A program made the position numbers and the translations under genes. From NCBI GenBank assembly GCA_964016885.1, contig OZ024743.1, positions 213,962,001 to 214,026,000 on the forward strand: 64,000 bases of DNA, written 5' to 3'. Within the stretch, counting starts at the first letter, position 1; the number at the start of each line of letters is the position of its first letter. The notes beneath the pieces were generated by a model, which did no database searches, was not told where the DNA came from, and worked only from the letters and a program-made list of their open reading frames with translations. Positions 8,406 through 62,803 of the stretch are shown one piece after another. This DNA is from Eledone cirrhosa. Taxonomy: Eukaryota.

Positions 8406-8464
8406 TTATCTGATGAACGCGCACCACAGTTTGCCTTGGTGGCCCTTGAAACATGTATAATGAA
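8406..8464 (+). ncRNA. Type I hammerhead ribozyme
   Basis: ttat CTGATGA (8410-8416) acgcgcacc..ggtggccctt GAAA (8448) catgta TA atga; stem II imperfect. Confidence 0.6.
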
Positions 8465-8665: not shown

Positions 8666-8703
<38 letters not shown>

Positions 8704-8706
<3 letters not shown>

Positions 8707-8898
8707 CGAAGGAAATGTGGTAAGGAACCAGGTGGACCATAACGCACCAAAGTACTCAATACTTGAGGTAGTAGAGTGGGTAATAGGAACCAGTAAGACC
8801 CCGACAGCTGAGCTCAAGCCGTTTCGATGGCTAATTCTGGACAGAAGTAGCCGTCGAAACGGCTTGAGCTCAGCTGTCGGGGTCTTACTGGTTCCTAT
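8704..8898. mobile_element. Family B pLTR fragment with 58-bp inverted arms (3' half of HHR only)
   Basis: Arms 8783-8839/8842-8898; near-identical to 62333-62470; (TA)n on both sides. Confidence 0.85.
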
Positions 8899-9370
8899 AT
8901 ATATATATATATATATGAATATATATATATAGGTGCATATATGTATATATATATATATATGTATATTGTTATACTTTGGGAAGGTCATGTTGCCAACAAA
9001 TTCAGAAACGAAATATATATGTATATATATGTATATATATATATGTATATATATATATATACAGAGCGAAAGAAAGAAAGGGAGAGAGAGAGAGAGAGGG
9101 GGGGGAGAGAGAGAGGTTGGTTTCGAAAGACTTGAGTTTTTCCACCACAAGCCATTCTGTCGACTTGAAAATCTGCAAGATGAAACGCCCGCCCGCGTTC
9201 TCGAAAATGATTTACTGACTGTTGTGCAACTAACCTCTACCGTACTCGTCCCATTGACTGAGTGCTCTATTACAAAAGATATAACCTCCCAGTGTTTTAC
9301 CACTATATATATATATATAAAATAAAATAAACAACCAACATATACTCAAAATTTATATATATATATATAT

Positions 9371-20505: not shown

Positions 20506-20681
20506 GAGATGAACATGTCAATTTAACCATACACACGCACACACGCACACACACATATATACACACACATTTTCTCAATGGCTAGGAATTCAGTCCACGC
20601 TTTGCTATTTCCTATCCACTGAATTATTTTTTAATAAGTTTCCAGTGTCCACGCTTTGCCTGGATACTTAGATGAGAATAG

Positions 20682-20763
20682 ACCACCCTGACGACGGAAT
20701 GCTTCTCTGTATCTTCTTTGGAAAATAGATTTATTCCATTCCAGAAACTAATTAGTTGGAAGT
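20682..20763 (+). ncRNA. Family C HHR, copy 1
   Basis: cc CTGACGA c ggaatg..cattcc a GAAAC taatta GTT gg; stem I weakened (accacc/ggaagt). Confidence 0.7.
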
Positions 20764-21199
20764 GATATTTTAGTAAGTAAGTTAATTTTATAATTTTCTT
20801 ATTTTACGTCTTTCATATTATTGTTCTGCAACCCCATGCATTGAACGACAAAGTTACTAAGACAAAACCTATATATTTGCTAGCATTGATATGCATCTGT
20901 ATGTATATATATGTTACTAGATATTAATTCTTTATAATTATCTCCAAATTATTTGTCGAGCAATATTGGCCATGACTGCTGCTATGGTAGCAGGCTGCCG
21001 TCTTATTAGCAAACCACTTTCCACTGATTGACCTCGATGTCACGTGATTGATTCTTTTTGAATTTGCCACCGACGCAGAGGCAGTGATTTTCTCAATGGC
21101 TAGGAATTCAGTCCACGCTTTGCTATTTCCTATCCACTGAACTATTTTTTAATAGGTTTCCAGTGTCCACGCTTTGCCTGGATACTTAGATGAGAATAG

Positions 21200-21281
21200 A
21201 CCTCCCTGACGACGGAATGCTTCTCCGTACCTTCTTCGGAAAATATATTTATTCCATTCCAGAAACTAATTAGTTGGAAGT
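21200..21281 (+). ncRNA. Family C HHR, copy 2
   Basis: acctcc CTGACGA c ggaatg..cattcc a GAAAC taatta GTT ggaagt. Confidence 0.8.
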
Positions 21282-21717
21282 GATATTTTAGTAAGTAAGA
21301 TAATTTTATAATTTTCTTATTTTACGTCTCTCATATTATTGTTCTGCAGCCCCATGCATTGAACCACAAAGTTACTAAGACAACACCTATATATTTGCTA
21401 GCATTGATATGCATCTGTATGTATATATATGTTACTAGATATTAATTCTTTATAATTATCTCCAAATTATTTGTCGAGCAATATTGGCCATGACTGCTGC
21501 TATGGTAGCAGGCCGCTGTCTTATTAGCAAACCACTTTCCACTGATTGACCTCGATGTCACGTGATTGATTCTTTTTGAATTTGCCACCGACGCAGAGGC
21601 AGTGATTTTCTCAATGGCTAGGAATTCAGTCCACGCTTTGCTATTTCCTATCCACTGAATTATTTTTTAATAAGTTTCCAGTGTCCACGCTTTGCCTGGA
21701 TACTTAGATGAGAATAG

Positions 21718-21799
21718 ACCTCCCTGACGACGGAATGCTTCTCTGTATCTTCTTCGGAAAATATATTTATTCCATTCCAGAAACTAATTAGTTGGAAGT
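21718..21799 (+). ncRNA. Family C HHR, copy 3
   Basis: Same as copy 2; inner hairpin capped by cUUCGg. Confidence 0.8.
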
Positions 21800-21965
21800 G
21801 ATACTTTAGTAAGTAAGTTAATTTTATAATTTTCTTATTTTACGTCTCTCATATTATTGTTCTGCAACCCCATGCATTGAACGACAAAGTTACTAAGACA
21901 AAACCTATATATTTGCTAGCATTGATATGCATCTGTATGTATATATATGTTACTAGATATTAATT

Positions 21966-22056
<91 letters not shown>

Positions 22057-22548: not shown

Positions 22549-23008
22549 CATATACATATATACATACAGGTACAAATACATATATGCACGCATCAGTTTA
22601 GCGGACGTTTATTATAACGCCGCTTTGTTCGTTTGTTTGTCAACAAACCGAACAGCCTGAATTTATGCCATACGGTGTTAAGGCAACCACGTCACCTTTT
22701 TGTTCAACACTGACACAGGAACGATGTACTAGTTTCAAGCTTGTTAGCTATCATCAGCACCGTTTACCCATCTGCCAGATAGTTGAACGTTCGAAAGTAT
22801 ATACTTTCCTTATGAAAATTAACGGCTGAGCAGCCTAATTTGCATATTGAGTGAGTTAAATCGGTCAGGCATACCGAAAACGATAAATTGAAACAAAATG
22901 AAAACGAAATTTCATTTCTCACTCTTAGTATGGCACTTACTTAAATGTAAGTATGCATGTATACGTACATACATAGATGTATACTGACGTACAGTAGCAT
23001 GCATATAT
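22376..23008 (-). mobile_element. Retrozyme-like 511-bp repeat (second unit runs into assembly gap)
   Basis: ATGAAAACGAAATTTCATTTCTC at 22387 and 22898; one HHR within the unit. Confidence 0.7.
22723..22761 (-). ncRNA. Minimal type I HHR
   Basis: ggtg CTGATGA t agct aaca agct t GAAAC ta GTA catc; palindromic ACTAGT stem III; U.U at 10.1/11.1. Confidence 0.8.
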
Positions 23009-27564: not shown

Positions 27565-27758
27565 AGTTATTCAGGGTTGAATCGGAGGTAACCACAGTAA
27601 GTAAGGTACTCAATACATAGCAGAGTATAAAAGTTTTAATATAGAAGAGCTTCTACAGGACCAGAACTGTTTCATTCGTTAGAAATCATCAGAAATCCTG
27701 ATGATTTCTCACGGATGAAAAAGTTCTAGTCCTGTAGAAGCTCTTCTATATTAAAACT
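27561..27758. mobile_element. Palindromic pLTR fragment: two HHR cores head-to-head
   Basis: 61-bp arms 27632-27692 / 27698-27758; each begins CTGATGA t ttc..GAAA..GTC ctgtag but lacks the 5' strand of stem I. Confidence 0.8.
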
Positions 27759-30283: not shown

Positions 30284-31049
30284 ATAGTAATATTACTAAA
30301 TTTGAAGACTAAAATCCAAAGATGGCTCGATAAGGATAAATATATATCAAATATATAAGAACCCCAGAGCAAGTATTTATTAAAATAACAGATTAAAGAT
30401 TAAGCAAATAATCGCTGCTTTCACCCTTATCGGGATCTTCTGAAACTAAAAAAGTCAATTGTGAACGCAGAAGTAAATATTTTAAAATACATTGCAACCG
30501 TAGGAAGACAGGAAGACGATACTTTGGTCCGTGGAAACGTTCCCTGGCAAATAACGGGAAAAAAACGAAGATAATACGTCATTATTTGTAGCGGTGCAAA
30601 ACAATTACACGCAAAGACAAAACCACGTGTATGGTACAAACAAAGTCGTAGACTAATATTCTATTAGGTCGTTCATGGAGACGTTCTCTGGCAATGAACG
30701 GAAAAACGAAGATGATACGTCATATGTGGAGCGGTGAGAACAATTGCACTCAAAGACAAAACCACGTAAATGGTATAACTGAAGTCGTAGACTAAAATTC
30801 TAACTAGGAAACCGAATGATTCACGGCTTCAGAGTTAAGAATAAAGTAAATAAAATACAGAGGTAATTGAAATTAAATAAATACATACACGCATCCATAT
30901 ATGTACATACACAAGCATACGCGAAAACACTCACCATAAGTATACAAATACAAGCACGTACACATAAAAAAAACTCGCACGCCCATACAGAACACACGCA
31001 ACGCCTGTACCCGCACACATACGAATGTATACACCAAATACACATAAAA

Positions 31050-31499: not shown

Positions 31500-33601
31500 A
31501 CTGTAATACAGGACATTTTTGTGAAATTTATGTTTACAAGCCGAAATTGCCTAAGATGTTTTGTTTAAGACGGGGACTTTGGCGTAGAGTATTTCCAGGG
31601 CCTCAGCGGCGCAGAGGTCACTAGGTCTTTTATTTCCGTTATACGATCTAGCCTTAACTAGAATCTCCCAGTGTAACTCATATTGCGTGTGGTTGTCTTT
31701 TAGACTCCAGATATAAGCTGAAAGTGACGTCATATTCCTTCTTAAAGGGTTACGAAAAGAATGGGTATGCATGTAAAGACGCTGCTTGAATCTATTGGCG
31801 GTTAACCCTATGTAGGCCCTACGGGACGTGGGTGTTACAACCTTACATTTGTAGACAATGTTACTAGAGAGGCATTTCCCGGATAGGGGCCAGTCATCCC
31901 GATTCCTACAATTACAGTTAGTACTAACTACAGGGTTGCACGTGTTCCAACGGTTAGGTAGTTTAGCTAAATTTGAAGCTGTGATGTTATGTGCAAGGTT
32001 AGGAGTCGTAGAGTAAGAAATGTTAATGGTATTTCTATTAAAAATGTTACTATATTTATGTGTAGGGGGAAAATACTTCATAATAAGGGAGAGAAAGATC
32101 TTAGCTAATGGTGTGGCCACCTCCATATTATATGGTGGGTTATACCATATAATGCGTCGGATCTATTTTCTCTAGGTCTATTCTTGTACTCTGTATATGC
32201 TACCTTATCGACAAATCCACTCCGAGCAAGAGCCTCATCGTAATATGTAGAATGATCGTTTAAAATATGCTCGTTAGTAGATAGACGGGAAAGCCTCAAA
32301 GAAACGTTTCTTACCAGGTTATTGGTTATGCTGGCAGGATGGTTTGAATGCTTACTTATATAATTAAGCGTATCGTTCGGCTTTCTATACGGGTAGTGCA
32401 AGCCATTCGATAAATTGAGGGTAACGTCGAGTTAATTAACGACCGAGAGGTTGGCCTCAACCTGTATGGAGAGGTTGAAGCCTTTAAAGAAGGCTGTGAG
32501 TTCTTTTCTGAACCAGTCGCAAGCACGTGGGCCGCACTTTGTCATGGTCAAAAAACCATCATCACGGTACAAACCACCGCCCACGTTGGGGAATTCTTCT
32601 TAGATAGAGAAAAGAAGGAAAAGGCCGTTAACATCAGTAACCTCCGCAGAATAGCTAGCGCCCATACTCACGTCGAATGGGGTACTATTAGATTTTTTAA
32701 TCCAAATAGACTCTTCGAAATTAATCACCGACTTACAGGCATTGAGGATGACATCAACTTCGAAATCCTTAACCACTGTGAGTGTTTAGCGAAATTGATA
32801 GCTCTAAGGAGAAGAGGTAAAGTGATGGAGGAGTAGTAATTATTGATGTAGAATTGGATAAAACGGCAATGTTCCTTGTTGCATATGCCGTTGAACCAAT
32901 CAATCACTGCGAAAGAATTGTTCCACAGTGCAAGAGGGGCCAAACTTCTAATTTCAGGTATAATTCTATCTAGAATCCTTTTACTAAGTCTACCTAAATC
33001 GGACTTCGTAGGGTTAATAAGCAGAATAGAGGGGTTGTTCGGAACATTGGATTTGTGATCCTTCAGGGTAAAGTGGGGAGAAATAGGGTCCAGAAGTTCA
33101 ATGCGGTCCACGATGTTGTGATCAGAGGTAATTTTAAACCCAGCATCGTTGATTTCATTAATGACGCTCCGATTAGTTTTACGGTAATCCTTAGTAACAG
33201 CATTATGTAGCAGTTGATTGTAAGTACTGCGCTCCACTTGATATAGATTGCCAGTTTTGTCGGAATGGACGTGCACGGTATTAGAATCCTTAATAGAACG
33301 AATTCTATTCTTCAGGTCCCGATGGAATGAAATGCTCCTATTCCGAAATTTGATACTCCGTATGAGTTCCAAGACATCATTTTGGAAAGGTAGCCATGCT
33401 GGATTATTGGAGGGTTATTATAGGTTTTAAACCCAAATTTATCCTGTTTGTTGTCTGCTTTTCCCTGATTATCGAAATAAAAGGCACGCCAACGGAACCT
33501 TTTAAGGAACGCATCTGTTTTTTTATCAGGAGTTTTAGATATGTTTTCCTGATTGGTACGGATATGTCCTTTGTAGAAATACTCAGATGTTGTTTCTGCA
33601 T
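31500..33601 (-). pseudogene. PLE reverse transcriptase + C-terminal GIY-YIG endonuclease (frameshifted)
   Basis: ATG at 33601; STKDISVP..FLKRFRWRAFYF..SDKTGNLY..TLKDHK..LINPTKSDLG..FDVSMGASYSAEVTD..GGLYRDDG..PYRKPN..SNHP..WYNPPY..CNCR..PLSGKC..IVYKC..YIGLTANRFKQR..H..LSAYIWSLKD..LC..E..LNK..CKH; several frameshifts and stops. Confidence 0.95.
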
Positions 33602-33643: not shown

Positions 33644-34419
33644 ATAGTAATAATAATAAATTTGAAGACTAAAATCCAAAGAGGGCTCGATAACGATAAA
33701 TGTATATCAAATATATAAGAACCGTAGAGCAAATATTTATTAAAATAATAGATTAAAGTTTAAGCAAATAATCGCTGCTTTCACATTTAATGGGATCTTC
33801 TGAAACTAAAAAAGTCAATCTGTGAACGCAGAAGTAAATATTTCAAAACATGTTGCAACCGGAGGAAGACAGGTAGACGATACTTTGGTTCGTGGAAACG
33901 TTCCCTGGCAAAGAACGGGAAAAAACGAAGATAATACATCATTATTTGGAGCGGTGAAAAACAATTACACGCAAAGACAAAACCACGTTTATGGTATAAA
34001 AGAAGTCGTAGACTAATATTCGATTAGGTCGTTAATGGAGACGTTCTCTGGCAATGGGCGGAAAAAAACGAATATAATACGTCATATGTGGATCGTGGAG
34101 AACAATTGAACGCAAAGACAAAACCACGTAAACGTTATAACTGAAGTCGTAGACTAAAATTCTAACTAGGAAACCGAATGATGCACGGCTACAGAGTTAA
34201 GAATAAAGTAACTAAAATACAGAGGTAATTGAAATTAAATAAATACATACACGCATCCATATACATACATACACAAGCATACGCGAAAACACTCGCCATA
34301 GGTATACAAATACAAGCACGTACACATAAAAAAACCCGCATGCACATACAGAATACACGCAACGCCTGTACCAGCACACATACGAATGTATACACAAAAT
34401 ACACATAAAAATATATATA

Positions 34420-36206: not shown

Positions 36207-37570
36207 AAATGAATTGTCTTCAAATTCTTGATATGAGGGAGAAAAATAACGATGTTCTCTCTCAGAATTCATTACCTCATATGAAGACTCCAGTCAGTCA
36301 GAGACACGGCGACTGCTATTAACGTCAGTTGAGGTCATAACAGTTTTCAGATTTCTATCGCTGCAAGAGACGCTGGAAATCAATCAAATCTGTAGGGATA
36401 CAGTCAGTCCCACCCACATACACCGGCTCGAGGTCAAAGAAAAATATATACATATATATACACACATCAACACAGTATTAAACCTGTAGAGTTAGTGTGG
36501 GAGGGTACACACACACTCTCACACACACCGAAGCGATGTCCGAGAAAAAACAAATACAAGAAAACAAATATAAGTATGTACCAACACAGCACTCACCGAA
36601 AGTTAGTTCACAAAACAACAGAAGCTATATTGGTCAAATCTCAATTTGACGATGTAAATTGGAAATATTGGGTTAACCAACGCCCATACAACACACACAC
36701 ACACAAGCAAGTAAGTTCAGCTCAGTGTTCTGCTATATGTGTATAGATTGAATTGTAACATCCATATCTTCAAGTGTATTTTATGGTATATACACATCCG
36801 AATCGTCCAAAAACGGGTATGTCCGGGAATATACACATACATGTGAAGAGCAAGCAATCAGCTCATATCGAACTCAGTATGTACCGCTGTCCCATTGAAA
36901 ATCCGAGTTTCAAAATCTGTGCGTGCAAGCAACCGCAATGTAGGCCAGCAAAGAGCTCCGTGTCGGGTTGAGTATTGGGTAAATGTGTCCGTAAGTGCGA
37001 TTTCCCGTCATATGGGCCAATGCGCTTTTAAGATAGTTGTTTGAGTGATGGAGGTGTGTTATCCAACACAGAAGGTGAAGTAAAAAAACACAGATAGTAA
37101 AATCCAAAGGATGTGTGTAGGCCCATTAATGGTGTGTCAGTATTATTGTTCAATCCGTAACAGTGATTCCTCCATGGTTAGATGATCACGGGTCAAATCC
37201 TAGTGTAGTGTTCAGTCGGTAGGAACGTGACAGTCGTAATTGTGGGAGCTCAATGTCTAAAGGAAACGGGTACTGTGTGTAGAGTTATGTATAGAGAGCC
37301 TAATCGGTCCTAACTAAGTGTGTAATACGACTAGCTATATCCCAACTGAGAGAACTCAATGGTTAGGGTATCTTAAAGTAAAGGTAGGCGCGCGAAATCG
37401 GTCATGTCTGAGTGAGCAATCAATTACTAACTAGGTATACTAAGTGTGTAATCAATCTAACTATTTACTAGCTAGTTATTCTAAAAAAGTGTACTCAGCT
37501 GCGAGAACTCCGTGGAAACAGGCCGAGTATCGTTTGTAAGTGCGCAAACAATCTTAGCCGTCTAACTTCT

Positions 37571-39513
37571 AGGTAGGGCCCTTAACATTGCTAGCTTACA
37601 CACCGACCTTACATCCGAAGAAATTAACATTATTCTCCTATCTGGAAAAACCTTAATTGATTTCAGCGGTGACCTGTGGACCAGGAAGGATTGGCCAAGC
37701 AATTTTGACATCACCATGGGATCCACGGACTCGGCCCAGGTGACGGATCTGGTGGGCCTTTACGTCTTTGACTGTCTCAGAGTGGAAAAGCCCCACTTGG
37801 AAGGCGGCGCTTACCGTGACGACGTTTTGTTTACTGTATCGTTCCATAATAATAGTATGGTAGAGAGGGTGAGGAAAAAACTAAGCAAATTCTTCAAGAA
37901 CATAGACCTAAGTATAGTATTTGAAGAGAACTTATAGATAGTTAATTTTCTAGATGTTACACTTAACCTCAATTCAGGACTGTTCCAACCCTACCACAAA
38001 CCCAACGAGAATCTAAACTATATCAACGCAAAATCGAACCACCCTAGAATAGTCACTAACGGTATTACCAAAAACGACTCTAGTAGAATTTCAGGACTAT
38101 CTTCCAATGAAGATACCTTTAATAAGATCTCGAATTACTATAATAGCGACCTGGAACGCGCGGGGCATAGCGAGGGAATCTCATTCAAACGACCATTAAA
38201 TAGTAGCAGCAACATTGCCTGCGATAGCTTAGGCCTAAATAGTGACACTCTAGTTAACAGCAGGCGTGATACGAGGGAAGATTTATATAGACTTCATATT
38301 ATATTGCCGCCTAGTCCCAATGCTGTTGGTACCAATAGAAACAACCACCCAGGTACTAACACGGGGTCAAAGCAACGTAACGCCAGCGGAAAGTCTAATG
38401 GTAACCTTAATTGTGGAACCGATAAAACTACCATTGAACGCAGTATAGAACGAGGGTCGAGTAAGGGGAATAGGGACAGGTATGGCAGACGCAGAGTGGA
38501 TACAACCCCGGCTATCCAGGGTAATCCAATGGCCGCACGGGGGGTACACCGCCCTGGAGAGTTGGGACGATTCCGAACACAATCGTGACACCCGAGGACA
38601 CCATCGACCCACAGGCAATTTCCAGTTACAATAGACCAGTAACTACTAGGGAGAGAGGTAATTCTAATATAGTTAGTAAGAATAAGAGGCATCGGACCAG
38701 AAAAGTGCTGTGGTATAATCCGCCTTACTCCACTGGCCTGACCACTAGTATAGCTAAGCTTTTCTTTAGGGTCTTAGACAAATGCTTCCCTAGATCGCAC
38801 AGAGATTATAAACTATTCAATAGAAATGCCATAAAGCTGTCCTACACTAAAACTAGTAACATAGCTCAGAATATAGCTAAGTTGAATTATAGTAGACTTA
38901 GGACAGCCCATGAGGGAATTAGGCATGGCAGGAACAATGGCAGCTCTATGGAGGAACTGACTCATACACGTGAGGCGAGTCAGGTCTCTCCAACTCCAGG
39001 GAATTTACCCATAGAGCAGACAGGGACTGAGACCCGACCCCAAAAGTAACGTGGTCCACCTGGAACTACCCAAGTCGATAGCAAAAAATGTAACTGCAGA
39101 AGCACCACCACCTGCCCCATGGCTGGGAAATGCCTTACCAAAAACATAGTCTATGACTGTAAGGTCTCCACTTCTGATATGTCCTTTAGGTATGTTGGGG
39201 CAACTGTCACGGAATTTAAGGATAGATTGTATAATCACCGCCATACCTTTAATAGATAAGATAAAAAAATAGCACGGCACTTTCTGAATTAGTCTGGAAG
39301 CTTAAACATCAAAATATAGAGCACTCCTTATCCTGCTCCATAGTTTTCTCAGCCCAAACTTATAACGGCAGCACTGGCGTCTGCAATTTATGTATAGCTG
39401 AAACTTTTAATATTATTAGAGACGGCCCCCTATTAATTAATAGGAGAGCAGATTTTTTCAGCAACTGCCAACATAGAACCTTGAAAACCTTCCGCAGGAT
39501 TTTTGGAAGGTAA
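37571..39513 (+). pseudogene. PLE RT (from motif 4) + GIY-YIG, Hydra-clade-like, with expanded linkers
   Basis: FDITMGSTDSAQVTDLVGL..GGAYRDD..VNFLDVTLNL..PYHKPN..SNHP..RKVLWYNPPYS..CNCRSTTTCPMAGKCLTKNIVYDC..YVGAT..FKDR.YNH..CNLCIAE..INRR..CQH; stops and frameshifts. Confidence 0.93.
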
Positions 39514-41491: not shown

Positions 41492-42057
<566 letters not shown>

Positions 42058-43736: not shown

Positions 43737-44460
43737 CTATGTTGGGTCGAATATTCTGTTGGCGAAGAAATATGCCCTACGATGGTGACAGTTAATAATT
43801 TTCTCGTTTCTATCCTTTATAGATGGTGGTCGCGACAGAGTTATGTGATAGGCCTCGGTAAGACAGAGATCACAACAGTTTCTTCGTCCATTGGACGCTG
43901 CGGATCTAGCCAAGATATCCCAAGTAAGTGAGTGTTCAATGTTGGTTTATTTAAGATTTTGAATGAGCCTAGCTAGAGATGTTGAGCATCTGCTGCTAGG
44001 GTCGCGGATGGAAAATGAGTGCGCATTATAGCGTACCTTAAATGGGTTAGAGGAAGAGCCAATATAGGAGCTAGTGTGTGATGCCGTTCTAAATGTGCAC
44101 CTATATACTATATTGGGCGTAAGGCATTGTCCGTTAAATGGGCATGCATTAGGGTAACGGCAGTTGTAATTACTGTTGCGATTAGTAAGAGTAGGGTTGT
44201 TTAAACTATGCGGCTGGTGTGTACTAATAGGATTGAAGGGGGGAAATATGCTACTAGGATAAGTATTGGTATAGTTGCGTGGTGTATTTATGGGAGGTAG
44301 TGGTACCGCGTTGTGGGAGTTAGATTTTTTTGGTTTATGTTGGTTACTAAATGCGATGTCGCTAGCTAGGTTCGGTGTCGTGGAGAAGGAGATTTTAATA
44401 TTGTTTTTATTAAAGAGTTTGTAGTATCTATGCTTGGGGGGAAATGTTTAGATAGGATAG
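43737..44460 (-). pseudogene. PLE linker + GIY-YIG fragment (Hydra-clade-like)
   Basis: KHRYYKLFNKNNIKISFSTTPNLA..NCRYPNACPFNGQCLTPNSIYRC..SYIGSSSNPFKVRYNAH..STSLA..LK*..WDILA..CDLCLTEAY..RNE..CHH. Confidence 0.9.
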
Positions 44461-44551
44461 AGAAGAAACTGCAACTATGCGTTAACCGACGTCTTCCATG
44501 TGTATTTTGTGGCCTTGCGATGTTTAATAAATGAATATATATATATTTATA

Positions 44552-47340: not shown

Positions 47341-47350
47341 TATATATATA

Positions 47351-48314
47351 GATAATTTAATATATCTACTAACATAAACGCACAGATGTATGCTAATGCC
47401 AGCAAATACACCGGGTATGTCATAGTACCTAGGTGGTTCAATGCAGGAGGATGCAGAACAATAATATAAAAGACGTAAAATAAGAAAATAAAAAAAAAAA
47501 ATTTTTTTTTCAATTAACTTACTTAAATTTTCACTCCAACTAATTAGATTCTGCAATGGGATAAAGACAGTTACGCAATGAACTGTTGAGAATTTCATTG
47601 CGTCATCAGGGAGATCATTCTCAGCCAAGTCTCCAGGCAATGCACGGACACTGGGGACTCATATAAAAATAATAATAATTCGGTAAATGGAACAGCTATC
47701 GAGGACTGGATTCCAGGTACTGAAAATTCTCACTGCTACTGGTCATATGGCCGATTCTAAAGAATCAATCACGTGACACAGAGGCTAGTCAGTAGGAATG
47801 GGATAGTAAGATGACAGATGCCTACTAACACCCCCCATAAAAATTTAGAAGTGGTTTTTGGCAGGTTTGCTCGACAAATCAGTGATTTGGAGATAAATAT
47901 AGATAATTTAATATATCTACTAACATAAGCGCACAGATGTACGCTAATGCCAGCAAATACACATGTTATGTCATAGTACCTAGGTGGTTCAATGCAGGAG
48001 GATGCAGAACAATAATATAAAAGACGTAAAATAAGAAAATAAAAAAAAATAAAAATCCTTTAAAATTAACGTACTTACTTAAATTTTCACTCCAACTAAT
48101 TAGTTTCTGCAATGGGATAAAGGCAGTTACGTAATGAACTGTTGACAATTTCATTGCGTCATCAGGGATATCATTCTCAGCCAAGTCTCCAGACAATGCG
48201 CGGACACTGGGGACTCATATAAAAATAATAATAATTCGGTAAATGGAACAGCTATCGAGGACTGGATTCCAGGTACTGAAAATTCTCACTGCTACTGGTC
48301 ATATGGCCGATTCT
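47351..48314 (-). mobile_element. Family C tandem repeat, ~551-bp unit x1.7, HHR per unit
   Basis: Unit starts 47351 and 47902; HHRs 47533-47613 (GAATC variant) and 48089-48169 (GAAAC); stem II gcaatg/cattgc; extra fragment 48833-48898. Confidence 0.88.
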
Positions 48315-48835
<521 letters not shown>

Positions 48836-49098
48836 TCATTGCGTCATCAGGGATATCATTCTCAGCCAAGTCTCCAGACAATGCGCGGACACTGGGGATT
48901 TCTGAAGACGGCGTATATATGTGTTGGTATGTATATTTAATCTTGATAGTTTGTATAATTTTGTATAATTTTGTACATAGATCTGTTGAATATGCATGCC
49001 AATTCTAACACATATATATCCTAGAAACGATCGTTAAATAATGAACTTTTTTTGTTTAATATAAGGAACTGTTTCATTGATTATTCATTATTTGTTTA

Positions 49099-49196: not shown

Positions 49197-49282
49197 GGAA
49201 CGAGTAGGACCCCGACGGCCGAGCTCAAGCAGTTTCTAAGAAACGACTTGAGCTCAGCCGTCGGGGTCCTACTCGTTCCTTA
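49195..49282. repeat. Family B palindrome of HHR 3' halves
   Basis: AGGAACGAGTAGGACCCCGACGG..GTTTCT a AGAAAC..CCGTCGGGGTCCTACTCGTTCCT. Confidence 0.85.
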
Positions 49283-49296
49283 CAACGTTTACTTCG

Positions 49297-49336
<40 letters not shown>

Positions 49337-49453
49337 CGAAGGAAATGTTGTAAGGAACAAGGTCGACCATAACGCAGCAAAGTATTCAATTGTAAACAAT
49401 TGTTATCGGTATGGTGAACTAACTGTTGTGTAACCACATCTCTCTCTCCCCCC

Positions 49454-49532
<79 letters not shown>

Positions 49533-49538
<6 letters not shown>

Positions 49539-50100
49539 GACGTAAAATAAGAACATTTTAAAAATTAAAATCTAACTTACTTACTAAAATTTTCACTCCA
49601 ACTATTTAGTTTCTGTAATGGGATAAATATAGTTACACAATGTAACTATCGAGAATTCATTACGTCATCAGGGAGTCTATTCTCAGCTAAGTTCCCAGGC
49701 GATGCGCGGACACTAGGAACCCATATGAAAATAATAATTCAGTGGATGTAATAAGCTAGCGGGAACTAAATTCCATAGCACTGAATTATTATTTTTATAT
49801 GGGTTCCTAGTGTCCGCGCTTTGCCTGGGAACTTAGCTGAGAATAGACTCCCTGATGACGTAATGAATTCTCGATAGTTACATTGTGTAACTATATTTAT
49901 CCCATTACAGAAACTAATTAGTTGGAGTGAAAATTTTAGTAAGTAAGTTAGTTTTTAATTTTTAAAATTTTCTTATTTTACGTCTTTCATATAATTGTTC
50001 TGCATCCCCCTGCATTGAACCACCTAGGTACTTTGACATAACTTATATACTTACTAGTATTAGTGTACATCTGTACGCATATGTTGGTAGATGTATTAAT

Positions 50101-50102
<2 letters not shown>
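49533..50102. mobile_element. Family C head-to-head insertion with two complete HHRs
   Basis: Arms 49533-49744 / 49779-49990; HHRs 49595-49676 (-) and 49847-49928 (+): actcc CTGATGA c gtaatg..cattac a GAAAC taatta GTT ggagt. Confidence 0.9.
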
Positions 50103-50143
<41 letters not shown>

Positions 50144-62190: not shown

Positions 62191-62307
<117 letters not shown>

Positions 62308-62332
62308 ATATATGTATATATATATGTATATA

Positions 62333-62803
62333 ACGAAGGATATGTGGTAAGGAACCAGGTGGACCATAACGCACCAAAGTACTCAATACTTGAGGTAGTA
62401 GAGTGGGTAATAGGAACCAGTAAGACCCCGACAGCTGAGCTCAAGCCGTTTCGACGGCTAATTCTGGACTAAATGAACATTTATCCTGGTATTTAAATAG
62501 CCGATCTTCTCAAGGGGTAATTCCATATATGGTCAAAGTGATTGTCAAAAATCAGTAGTAATTCTGTGGTTGCAAATTAGTAGGGGAGATGGTGGCTAAA
62601 CCTGCTGGCAGGTTTAGCCACCATCTCCCCTACTAATTTGCAACCACAGAATTACTACTGATTTTTGACAATCACTTTGACCATATATGGAATTACCCCT
62701 TGAGAAGATCGGCTATTTAAATACCAGGATAAATGTTCATTTAGTCCAGAATTAGCCGTCGAAACGGCTTGAACTCAGCTGTCGGGGTCTTACTGGTTCC
62801 TAT
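62333..62803. mobile_element. Family B near-perfect palindrome with complete U3-A8 HHR on each strand
   Basis: Arms 62410-62605 / 62608-62803, one mismatch seen; HHRs 62425-62518 (-) and 62695-62788 (+): acccc TTGAGAA ga-t-cggcta..tagccgtc GAAAC ggcttga(g/a)ctcagct GTC ggggt. Confidence 0.92.

Follow-up and report, generated by a model that had tools for sequence, protein, structure and literature searches.

What lies at positions 49839-49928 of the whole 64-kb stretch of DNA analysed (hereafter the window) is very probably a hammerhead-type motif in a retrozyme-like repeat. On the forward strand the motif reads GAGAA-UAG-ACUCC-CUGAUGA-C-GUAAUG-AA-UUCUC-(hairpin)-UUUAUCC-CAUUAC-A-GAA-ACUAAUUAGU-U-GGAGU, and re-reading of the sequence has shown that all the coordinates given in a preliminary description were right (parts in Table 1). 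CUGANGA, GAAA and UH are arranged around a three-way junction open at stem I, as in a type I hammerhead, with the core at 49852-49923 (+), and the cut is predicted from the hammerhead consensus between 49923 and 49924. In an alignment of 25 natural copies, taken mostly one per cluster, the stem I variants pair on inspection by eye, and the distal stem I (ACUUA/UAAGU) is paired in 96.8% of the cells with one-sided changes only. Stem III is invariant in this alignment and gives no covariation information, and the core is identical in the majority sequences of 13 subfamilies, N7 excepted.

Table 1. Features of the motif and of the repeats that carry it (window positions).
Feature	Position	Strand	Remarks
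Tandem array	20569..21972	+	518-bp unit; hammerheads at 20688, 21206 and 21724
Inverted-repeat insertion, same family	41540..41964	.	full hammerhead at 41678 (-), partial copy (+)
Tandem array	47342..48315	-	556-bp unit; hammerheads at 48165 and 47609
Third piece beside the 47342..48315 array	48833-48898 (48.85 kb)		broken by (TA)n
Inverted arm of the focal insertion	49531..49744	-	second hammerhead, core 49671-49600, stem III mutated
Sense arm of the retrozyme-like element	49779..50103	+	5'-truncated unit, 3' end at (TC)n(TA)n
Distal stem I, 5' strand ACUUA	49831..49835	+	predicted; pairs with UAAGU 49940-49944
Pseudoknot, 5' strand GAGAA	49839..49843	+	predicted partner UUCUC 49868-49872
Stem I, 5' strand ACUCC	49847..49851	+	partner GGAGU 49924-49928
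Catalytic core C3-A9, CUGAUGA	49852..49858	+	from sequence
Extra base between A9 and G10.1	49859..49859	+	C here, A in one clade
Extended stem II	49860..49908	+	IIa, pyrimidine-rich internal loop, inner hairpin IIb
Stem IIa, GUAAUG/CAUUAC	49860-49865 / 49903-49908	+	6 bp
UUCUC	49868-49872	+	in stem II internal loop
Inner hairpin IIb	about 49874-49894	+
Extra A between C11.1 and G12	49909..49909	+	constant across lineages
GAAA	49910-49913	+	G12-A13-A14, then first base of stem III
G12-A13-A14, palindromic stem III and U17	49910..49923	+	stem III ACUAAUUAGU at 49913-49922; U17 at 49923

A strict R10.1-Y11.1 pair placed directly after A9 and before G12 is not found, because C.A or A.A intervenes. 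This C.A had been taken as an invariant replacement of the 10.1-11.1 pair, a view that has to be abandoned since a whole clade has A.A and the constant pair is the next one, G-C in 24 of the 25 alignment rows. The base at the 49859 position differs from C in 386 genome copies, and the first 100 of them listed comprise 67 with A, 32 with U and one with G. In a 102-row tree the A-bearing copies make up a 16-row clade (support 100/99) plus three sporadic rows elsewhere; the U-bearing copies are scattered over the subfamilies, a distribution that CpG decay would give. The opposing A (49909 position) varies in 30 scattered copies and in no lineage, and no lineage has taken a Watson-Crick pair at the C.A position. 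Since the C position varies by lineage, the next G-C is constant and Penelope hammerheads offer a precedent, the simpler reading of the core would be A9-(C or A)-G10.1...C11.1-(A)-G12, in which two additional bases, unpaired or mismatched, bracket an ordinary G-C pair. Hammerheads of Penelope elements are described as typically carrying one base inserted after position 9 and before 10.1, together with a conserved G10.1-C11.1 pair (PMC4209133), an extra A is present in a viroid hammerhead example (PMC1636495), and mismatches (U.U) are known at the base of stem II (PMC3088659; PMC7229834). With one base inserted at either side of stem II, the range of tolerated hammerhead cores would be widened.

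Copies of the motif and their carrier element

Ten copies of the motif were detected in the window (E <=2e-6) with a covariance model built from 25 copies. The four outer stem II variants reported previously at 20.7-21.8, 41.6, 47.6/48.1 and 49.6/49.9 kb are found in those places, the UUCUC of the 48.1-kb copy is indeed mutated (UUGUC), and the one copy said to have a mutated stem III is that at 49.6 kb. The preliminary description had missed the third piece beside the 47342..48315 array, a partial copy without the core at 41.7-41.8 kb (+) and the mutation of A15.1 (GAAU) in the 47.6-kb copy. An exact-pattern search of the 3.0-Gb genome gave 6,685 matches against none for the reversed pattern, so the occurrence of the motif is not due to chance, and the repeat that carries it has about 7,000 genomic copies.

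A comparison with Rfam Hammerhead_1, proposed in the preliminary description, leaves the motif below threshold. No matches were obtained in the whole window at the Rfam gathering thresholds, and no hammerhead family was among the 70 matches to 47.4-50.1 kb at E up to 10. RF00163 gave 18 matches over the cut-off from 74 scored candidates genome-wide, and the four matches listed (within L262-L266) all belong to another, canonical Hammerhead_1 family of this genome. A family of ~7,000 copies is therefore missed by Rfam here, and ribozyme censuses of animal genomes may undercount as a consequence. The exact pattern had no matches in viral contigs. A single match in a metagenome contig (L091) was excluded from the analyses as a chance match. 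It lies in a bacterial contig, lacks stem II and overlaps the end of an ORF that we take to be trpS-like. The organisms B-D, with 3-7 low-depth contigs each, were left out as evidence of spread.

A looser pattern for distant relatives gave 8,154 matches (13 in the control), mainly from a different hammerhead family. This separate and very abundant family (L193:1320-2720, L192-L221) accounts for most of the first 100 of these matches, has one extra G after A9, and is located downstream of the end of a GIY-YIG-like ORF, within an inverted insertion in (TA)n; on these sequence features it is a canonical Penelope-like element (PLE) hammerhead. Other repeats were observed in the window: a family with CUGAUGA preceded by UUUUAU or similar, at 8410(+), 8310(-), 52681(-), 60290(+) and 18620(-), whose copy at 8.2-8.5 kb forms an inverted pair with (TA)n at its end and contains a hammerhead-like core; a small hammerhead-like motif in an inverted pair at 27698(+)/27692(-) (27.6-27.8 kb); a compact hammerhead-like candidate with a 7-bp stem I at 22727-22757 (22757(-)); and a short palindromic repeat family of the GAACGAGTAGGACCCCGACGGC...GAGCTCAGCCGTCGGGGTCCTACTCGTTC type between (TA)n tracts, at 49200-49440, 8700-8930 and 62200-62470.

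The carrier units are non-coding, ~520-580 bp long, arranged in tandem or inverted, and end in microsatellites. In the loci sampled, 149 of 155 tandem spacings were 500-580 nt, inverted neighbours were head-to-head in 64 of 68 cases, and microsatellites were found at 239 of 280 3' ends and 52 of 70 5' ends. Two clusters of 3' ends are seen past the predicted cut, one at about 50-70 nt and the other at about 170 nt, and a unit folds better than its shuffles (z -3.5). In the focal insertion, the sense arm shares 78-82% identity with other window units, and the inverted arm, with 97% identity over 215 nt, reaches (TA)n at the shorter of the 3' end points. A transcript entering this insertion from upstream is predicted to fold into a hairpin of about 215 bp (-370.9 kcal/mol) that would bury the ribozyme, so that the 49.8-kb copy would probably be an inactive insertion product rather than a source.

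The arrangement of non-coding units in tandem, with a type I hammerhead in every unit, is that described for non-LTR retrozymes (PMC7229834; bioRxiv 10.64898/2026.07.22.740005), and the tandem and inverted insertions biased to microsatellite targets follow a pattern described for Penelope-like elements (PMC8557442). The carrier is likely to be a non-LTR retrozyme-like, Penelope-type non-autonomous element; the preliminary description had recognized the motif itself, as now confirmed, without giving this mobile-element setting. No PLE protein match was found inside the window units, and neither an autonomous element with this hammerhead nor pLTR homology to an autonomous PLE was found in the loci sampled. 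Two of the 18 5' ends that are not at microsatellites directly abut Penelope-like ORF sequence. In one of them (L160:700-1740 / L267:5970-7300) the PLE ORF runs into a truncated unit, with an inverted PLE end on the other side and (TA)n flanks, and 29 other copies of this PLE continue with their own, different 3' end, without CUGANGA within 330 nt; in the other (L045, 380-1760) an inverted RT fragment is joined to a retrozyme unit. Both junctions would be accounted for if a PLE RT had switched templates, and could instead be later deletions; these chimeric insertions are candidate footprints of trans-mobilization and a tangible clue to the enzyme by which animal retrozymes are moved. Six ORF fragments, mutually similar by tblastn, are presumed to be Penelope-like from their motifs (GIY-YIG-like YIG, WYNPPY and a Cys linker), and a Pfam search of the six gave no match. 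Three broken Penelope-like ORFs with GIY-YIG-like ends, without a Pfam match, were observed in the window at 31551-33414(-), 37566-39450(+) and 43818-44468(-), the first of which lies between tandem repeats of 139-141 bp (30532-30802 and 33893-34162).

Covariation of stem II and the putative pseudoknot

In the 25-copy alignment 96.9% of the cells pair across the structure and 36 cells are changed on both sides, a number of double changes that was reached in none of 500 shuffles, and slid controls were paired in only 33-53% (best 52.6%). Pair 2 of stem IIa is A-U in 9 copies, U-A in 9, C-G in 4 and G-C in 3, and pair 5 is G-C in 15 and U-A in 10. In the 102-row tree, with the trait columns included, at least three independent double changes were found at pair 2 and at least two at pair 5. 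RNAalifold independently predicted IIa and the base of IIb, with double changes in 6 of 11 pairs. When stem II domains were folded in isolation, IIa was formed in all 22 (in one of them with 5 of its 6 pairs), followed by a pyrimidine loop of roughly 7x7 and an inner hairpin, several of which are closed by cUUCGg. Stem II of the hammerhead is thus supported by covariation for which there is hardly an explanation other than selection acting on the RNA structure as the element was copied, and the double changes, the shuffles, the slid controls, RNAalifold and the tree all bear out the selection on structure put forward previously.

The UUCUC of the internal loop, predicted to be unpaired (P >=0.88) in 21 of the 22 isolated domains, would form with GAGAA a pseudoknot of 5 bp conserved between the peripheries of stems I and II, and this pseudoknot is considered probable, a competing fold being also predicted. 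GAGAA is constant while both its flanks vary, and UUCUC is constant while the spacer runs from 1 to 4 nt; since about half of the element columns (196 of 384) are invariant across the 13 subfamilies anyway, at a mean distance of 0.17, the invariance alone is weak evidence. Enumeration of the conserved 5-bp Watson-Crick helices in the alignment left only IIa, III, distal stem I and GAGAA/UUCUC, with IIa and III coming in a shifted and an alternative register. The central pair is G-C in 6,713 genome copies and A.C in 48, which are distributed across subfamilies with none in the GGAAUG-C lineage. With a UUUUC loop not followed by U, it is G.U in 54 copies and A-U in 21 (C-insert copies only). The A-U copies, all 21 of them, come from a single lineage that has 27 UUUUC copies, 21 of these with GAAAA. 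In a 38-row tree built with the two trait columns dropped, the A-U copies correspond to a (starred) clade of seven rows and to two of the three rows of another, G.U copies being interspersed with them or adjacent. One or two compensatory events along a G-C, G.U, A-U path would account for this distribution, and a coincidence would have a chance of roughly 1-3%, as estimated from branch lengths of ~0.01-0.025 and not from a formal test. The pairing claimed in the preliminary description is therefore plausible, with one natural compensatory lineage, and not proven, with only 1-2 events at one pair.

Only one dispersed lineage has a variant GAGAA. Positions 1, 2, 4 and 5 of this motif are changed in 44, 36, 53 and 34 copies, scattered or in local arrays, at a rate similar to that of the invariant A before G12. 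The searches for pseudoknot variants fixed the GAGAA side, and in UUCUC variants were sought directly at the central base only. In the A-U lineage the pseudoknot duplex is weak (-0.6 versus -3.3 kcal/mol), and the terminal C has been lost in 4 of the 100 rows listed, belonging to one small sub-lineage and one other. Most loci came from searches for variant positions, and alignment A1 holds five copies with sporadic GAGAA changes and a misaligned loop (L011), a sampling that lowered the pseudoknot pairing to 94.4%. The spread of pseudoknot variants within long local arrays of units (G000:C2:312.57-312.62 Mb, C28:8.79-8.86 Mb and C3:88.38-88.40 Mb) suggests DNA-level amplification free of RNA selection.

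The 3' strand of the stem II internal loop, UWUAYYC (49896-49902), was also observed to be conserved across lineages and to resemble the 5' strand of stem I. It could pair with the downstream GUAAG or with GGAGUGAAA; the pairing of UUUAU with GUAAG is found in 98% including G.U, with no change of Watson-Crick type. Two rival helices, GCUGAGA/UUUUAG and UAGA/UUUA, were discarded with no double changes.

Dimer cleavage and alternative readings

Position 17 differs from U in 73 genome copies, so that the retention of U throughout, as described from the window, does not extend to the genome. A dispersed lineage of 23 copies uses GUA, and 12 copies have G, scattered or in one local array; at the lineage level the change is only to A, never to G. 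GUU is a slower cleavage site than GUC or GUA. The 10-nt palindrome of stem III folds in the monomer as 3 bp and a tetraloop and between copies as a duplex of -9.0 kcal/mol, from which cleavage in dimers is predicted. Dimeric cleavage through a palindromic stem III is an established model for such motifs (PMC4209133, PMC6765202). The double hammerhead was more stable than two single ones by 1.4-7.4 kcal/mol in four of four natural two-unit stretches; in the four dimers both hammerhead folds lie above the MFE, the double one by 2.6-11.6 kcal/mol, and in all 22 single copies the active fold lies 1.3-8.4 kcal/mol above it. In a published test, eight of nine Xenopus retrozyme dimers remained uncleaved in vitro (bioRxiv 10.64898/2026.07.22.740005).

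By a small preponderance, the motif is read here as a type I hammerhead of a retrozyme likely moved by a PLE, which would cleave itself mainly as a dimer and in which a likely pseudoknot would tie stem I to stem II and accelerate cleavage. Transcripts reading through tandem arrays would fold into double hammerheads with the 10-bp stem III between neighbours, and the cut after GUU would give unit-length RNAs, possibly circularized, to be reverse-transcribed into (TA)n targets by a Penelope-like RT/endonuclease acting in trans. The pseudoknot would stand in for the canonical contact between loops 1 and 2 and offset the sub-optimal core. An activating effect of the pseudoknot is judged clearly the more probable over an attenuating one, in which element and pseudoknot would be real and cleavage would be timed, monomers or circles staying intact and dimers being cleaved. 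This attenuating switch, an unlikely reading overall, has been reported for the barley/cereal yellow dwarf virus satellite hammerhead, and in many subfamilies the monomer MFE fold traps the core CUGAU with the stem III AUUAG, so that silencing of the monomer looks plausible. However, in the natural pseudoknot hammerheads tested by mutation the pseudoknot raises activity 20- to over 100-fold (PMC3088659), and the polarity, with A5 nearest stem I and U1 nearest IIa, would fit parallel stems I and II.

It is equally doubtful, or slightly more so, that no pseudoknot exists, GAGA extending stem I with a downstream UUUU(A) and UUCUC being kept for protein/RT binding or loop geometry. Such an extension is favoured over the pseudoknot by nearest-neighbour MFE in most full-region folds and subfamilies, the G-to-A change also improves the GAGA/UUUU pairing, the conservation of the opposite loop strand UWUAYYC is likewise without a proven partner, and compensatory pseudoknot events are only 1-2. 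Nevertheless, it has no double changes, its 90% pairing equals the shuffled mean, the G23 pair is broken in 5 of 25 rows, and it fails to explain that the sole lineage with a changed GAGAA also changed the exact partner base in UUCUC. It is very improbable that the motif derives from a hammerhead that has lost all or nearly all catalytic activity and is retained as a structural signal in reverse transcription or dimerization: the consensus is departed from in three ways at once (two extra bases and GUU), stacking of A9.G12 might be perturbed by the A inserted before G12, and low in vitro activity is described for PLE hammerheads (PMC4209133), but the core is unchanged across the 13 subfamily majorities except N7, lineage-level changes at position 17 are only to A, and the unit-length tandem organization fits cleavage.

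A bolder extension of the favoured reading, that of an active dimeric ribozyme, is rather unlikely: a new architecture, in which the doubly expanded core and GUU would be licensed by the internal-loop pseudoknot as a monomer/dimer switch, in a retrozyme mobilized in trans by a Penelope clade without its own canonical hammerhead, as the chimeric insertions L160/L267 and L045 would reflect. If true, an animal genome would have converged on the design of the yellow dwarf satellite. The subfamilies are natural alleles for kinetics, with G-C, G.U or A-U in the pseudoknot, C or A as insert and GUU or GUA at the site.

Comparison with known hammerheads and retrozymes

This combination in an animal repeat was not found described in full-text literature searches whose reach left most subscription papers outside. 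Similar PLE variants may already have been described by Lunse et al. in 2017. Stem I-stem II pseudoknots are predicted in about 40% of hammerheads (PMC3088659), and the novelty implied in the preliminary description was overstated. Further literature on the subject includes PMC10085705, PMC3185516 and PMC2632901.

The element resembles the metazoan non-LTR retrozymes (Cervera and de la Pena 2020, PMC7229834; Li et al. 2026, bioRxiv 10.64898/2026.07.22.740005) in its non-coding tandem units with type I hammerheads, low GC, thousands of copies and co-occurrence with Penelope-like elements. Its units are of 520-580 bp, compared with RNAs of 170-400 nt (PMC7229834) and consensus lengths of 51-972 bp (bioRxiv 10.64898/2026.07.22.740005), and its helix II has about 50 nt with an internal loop rather than about 4 bp. 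Unit-length circular RNA, an expression form of non-LTR retrozymes, would be a possible product of the element reported here. With the PLE hammerheads (Cervera and de la Pena 2014, PMC4209133) it shares the extra base between A9 and G10.1, the conserved G10.1-C11.1, a palindromic helix III, a short helix I, a longer helix II and tandem plus inverted insertions. Unlike those hammerheads as described there, it has one more inserted base (the A preceding G12), a 6-bp stem followed by internal loop and hairpin, a 10-nt palindrome, GUU and a predicted pseudoknot, and no coding partner was found in the loci sampled.

The pseudoknot hammerheads (Perreault et al. 2011, PMC3088659) have a Watson-Crick link of stems I and II in place of loop-loop contacts, as is predicted here; in the human C10orf118 hammerhead it has 5 bp, the length predicted here (PMC3088659; PMC11300833). 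Helix II of the crystal-structure form (Zhan et al. 2024, PMC11300833) consists of a very short stem, and its loop provides the pseudoknot helix. Unlike in these hammerheads, the partner proposed here is an internal loop beyond the 6-bp IIa, in a high-copy metazoan repeat.

Precedents exist singly for the pseudoknot, for the extra base after A9 and for dimers. In the cereal (barley) yellow dwarf virus-RPV satellite plus-strand hammerhead the contact is a pseudoknot between loop 1 and a helix II bulge, and extra core bases are present. Its helix II, like the one described here, is unusually long and holds internal loops (PMC1636495, Table 1). Its peripheral contact lowers cleavage (PMC3152364) and a double hammerhead is needed (PMC6466107); a peripheral contact affecting the rate and a double hammerhead are predicted here too. 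As compared through secondary descriptions, it differs in being a plant viral satellite with an AUA site, a 6-bp helix III and a contact that slows cleavage.
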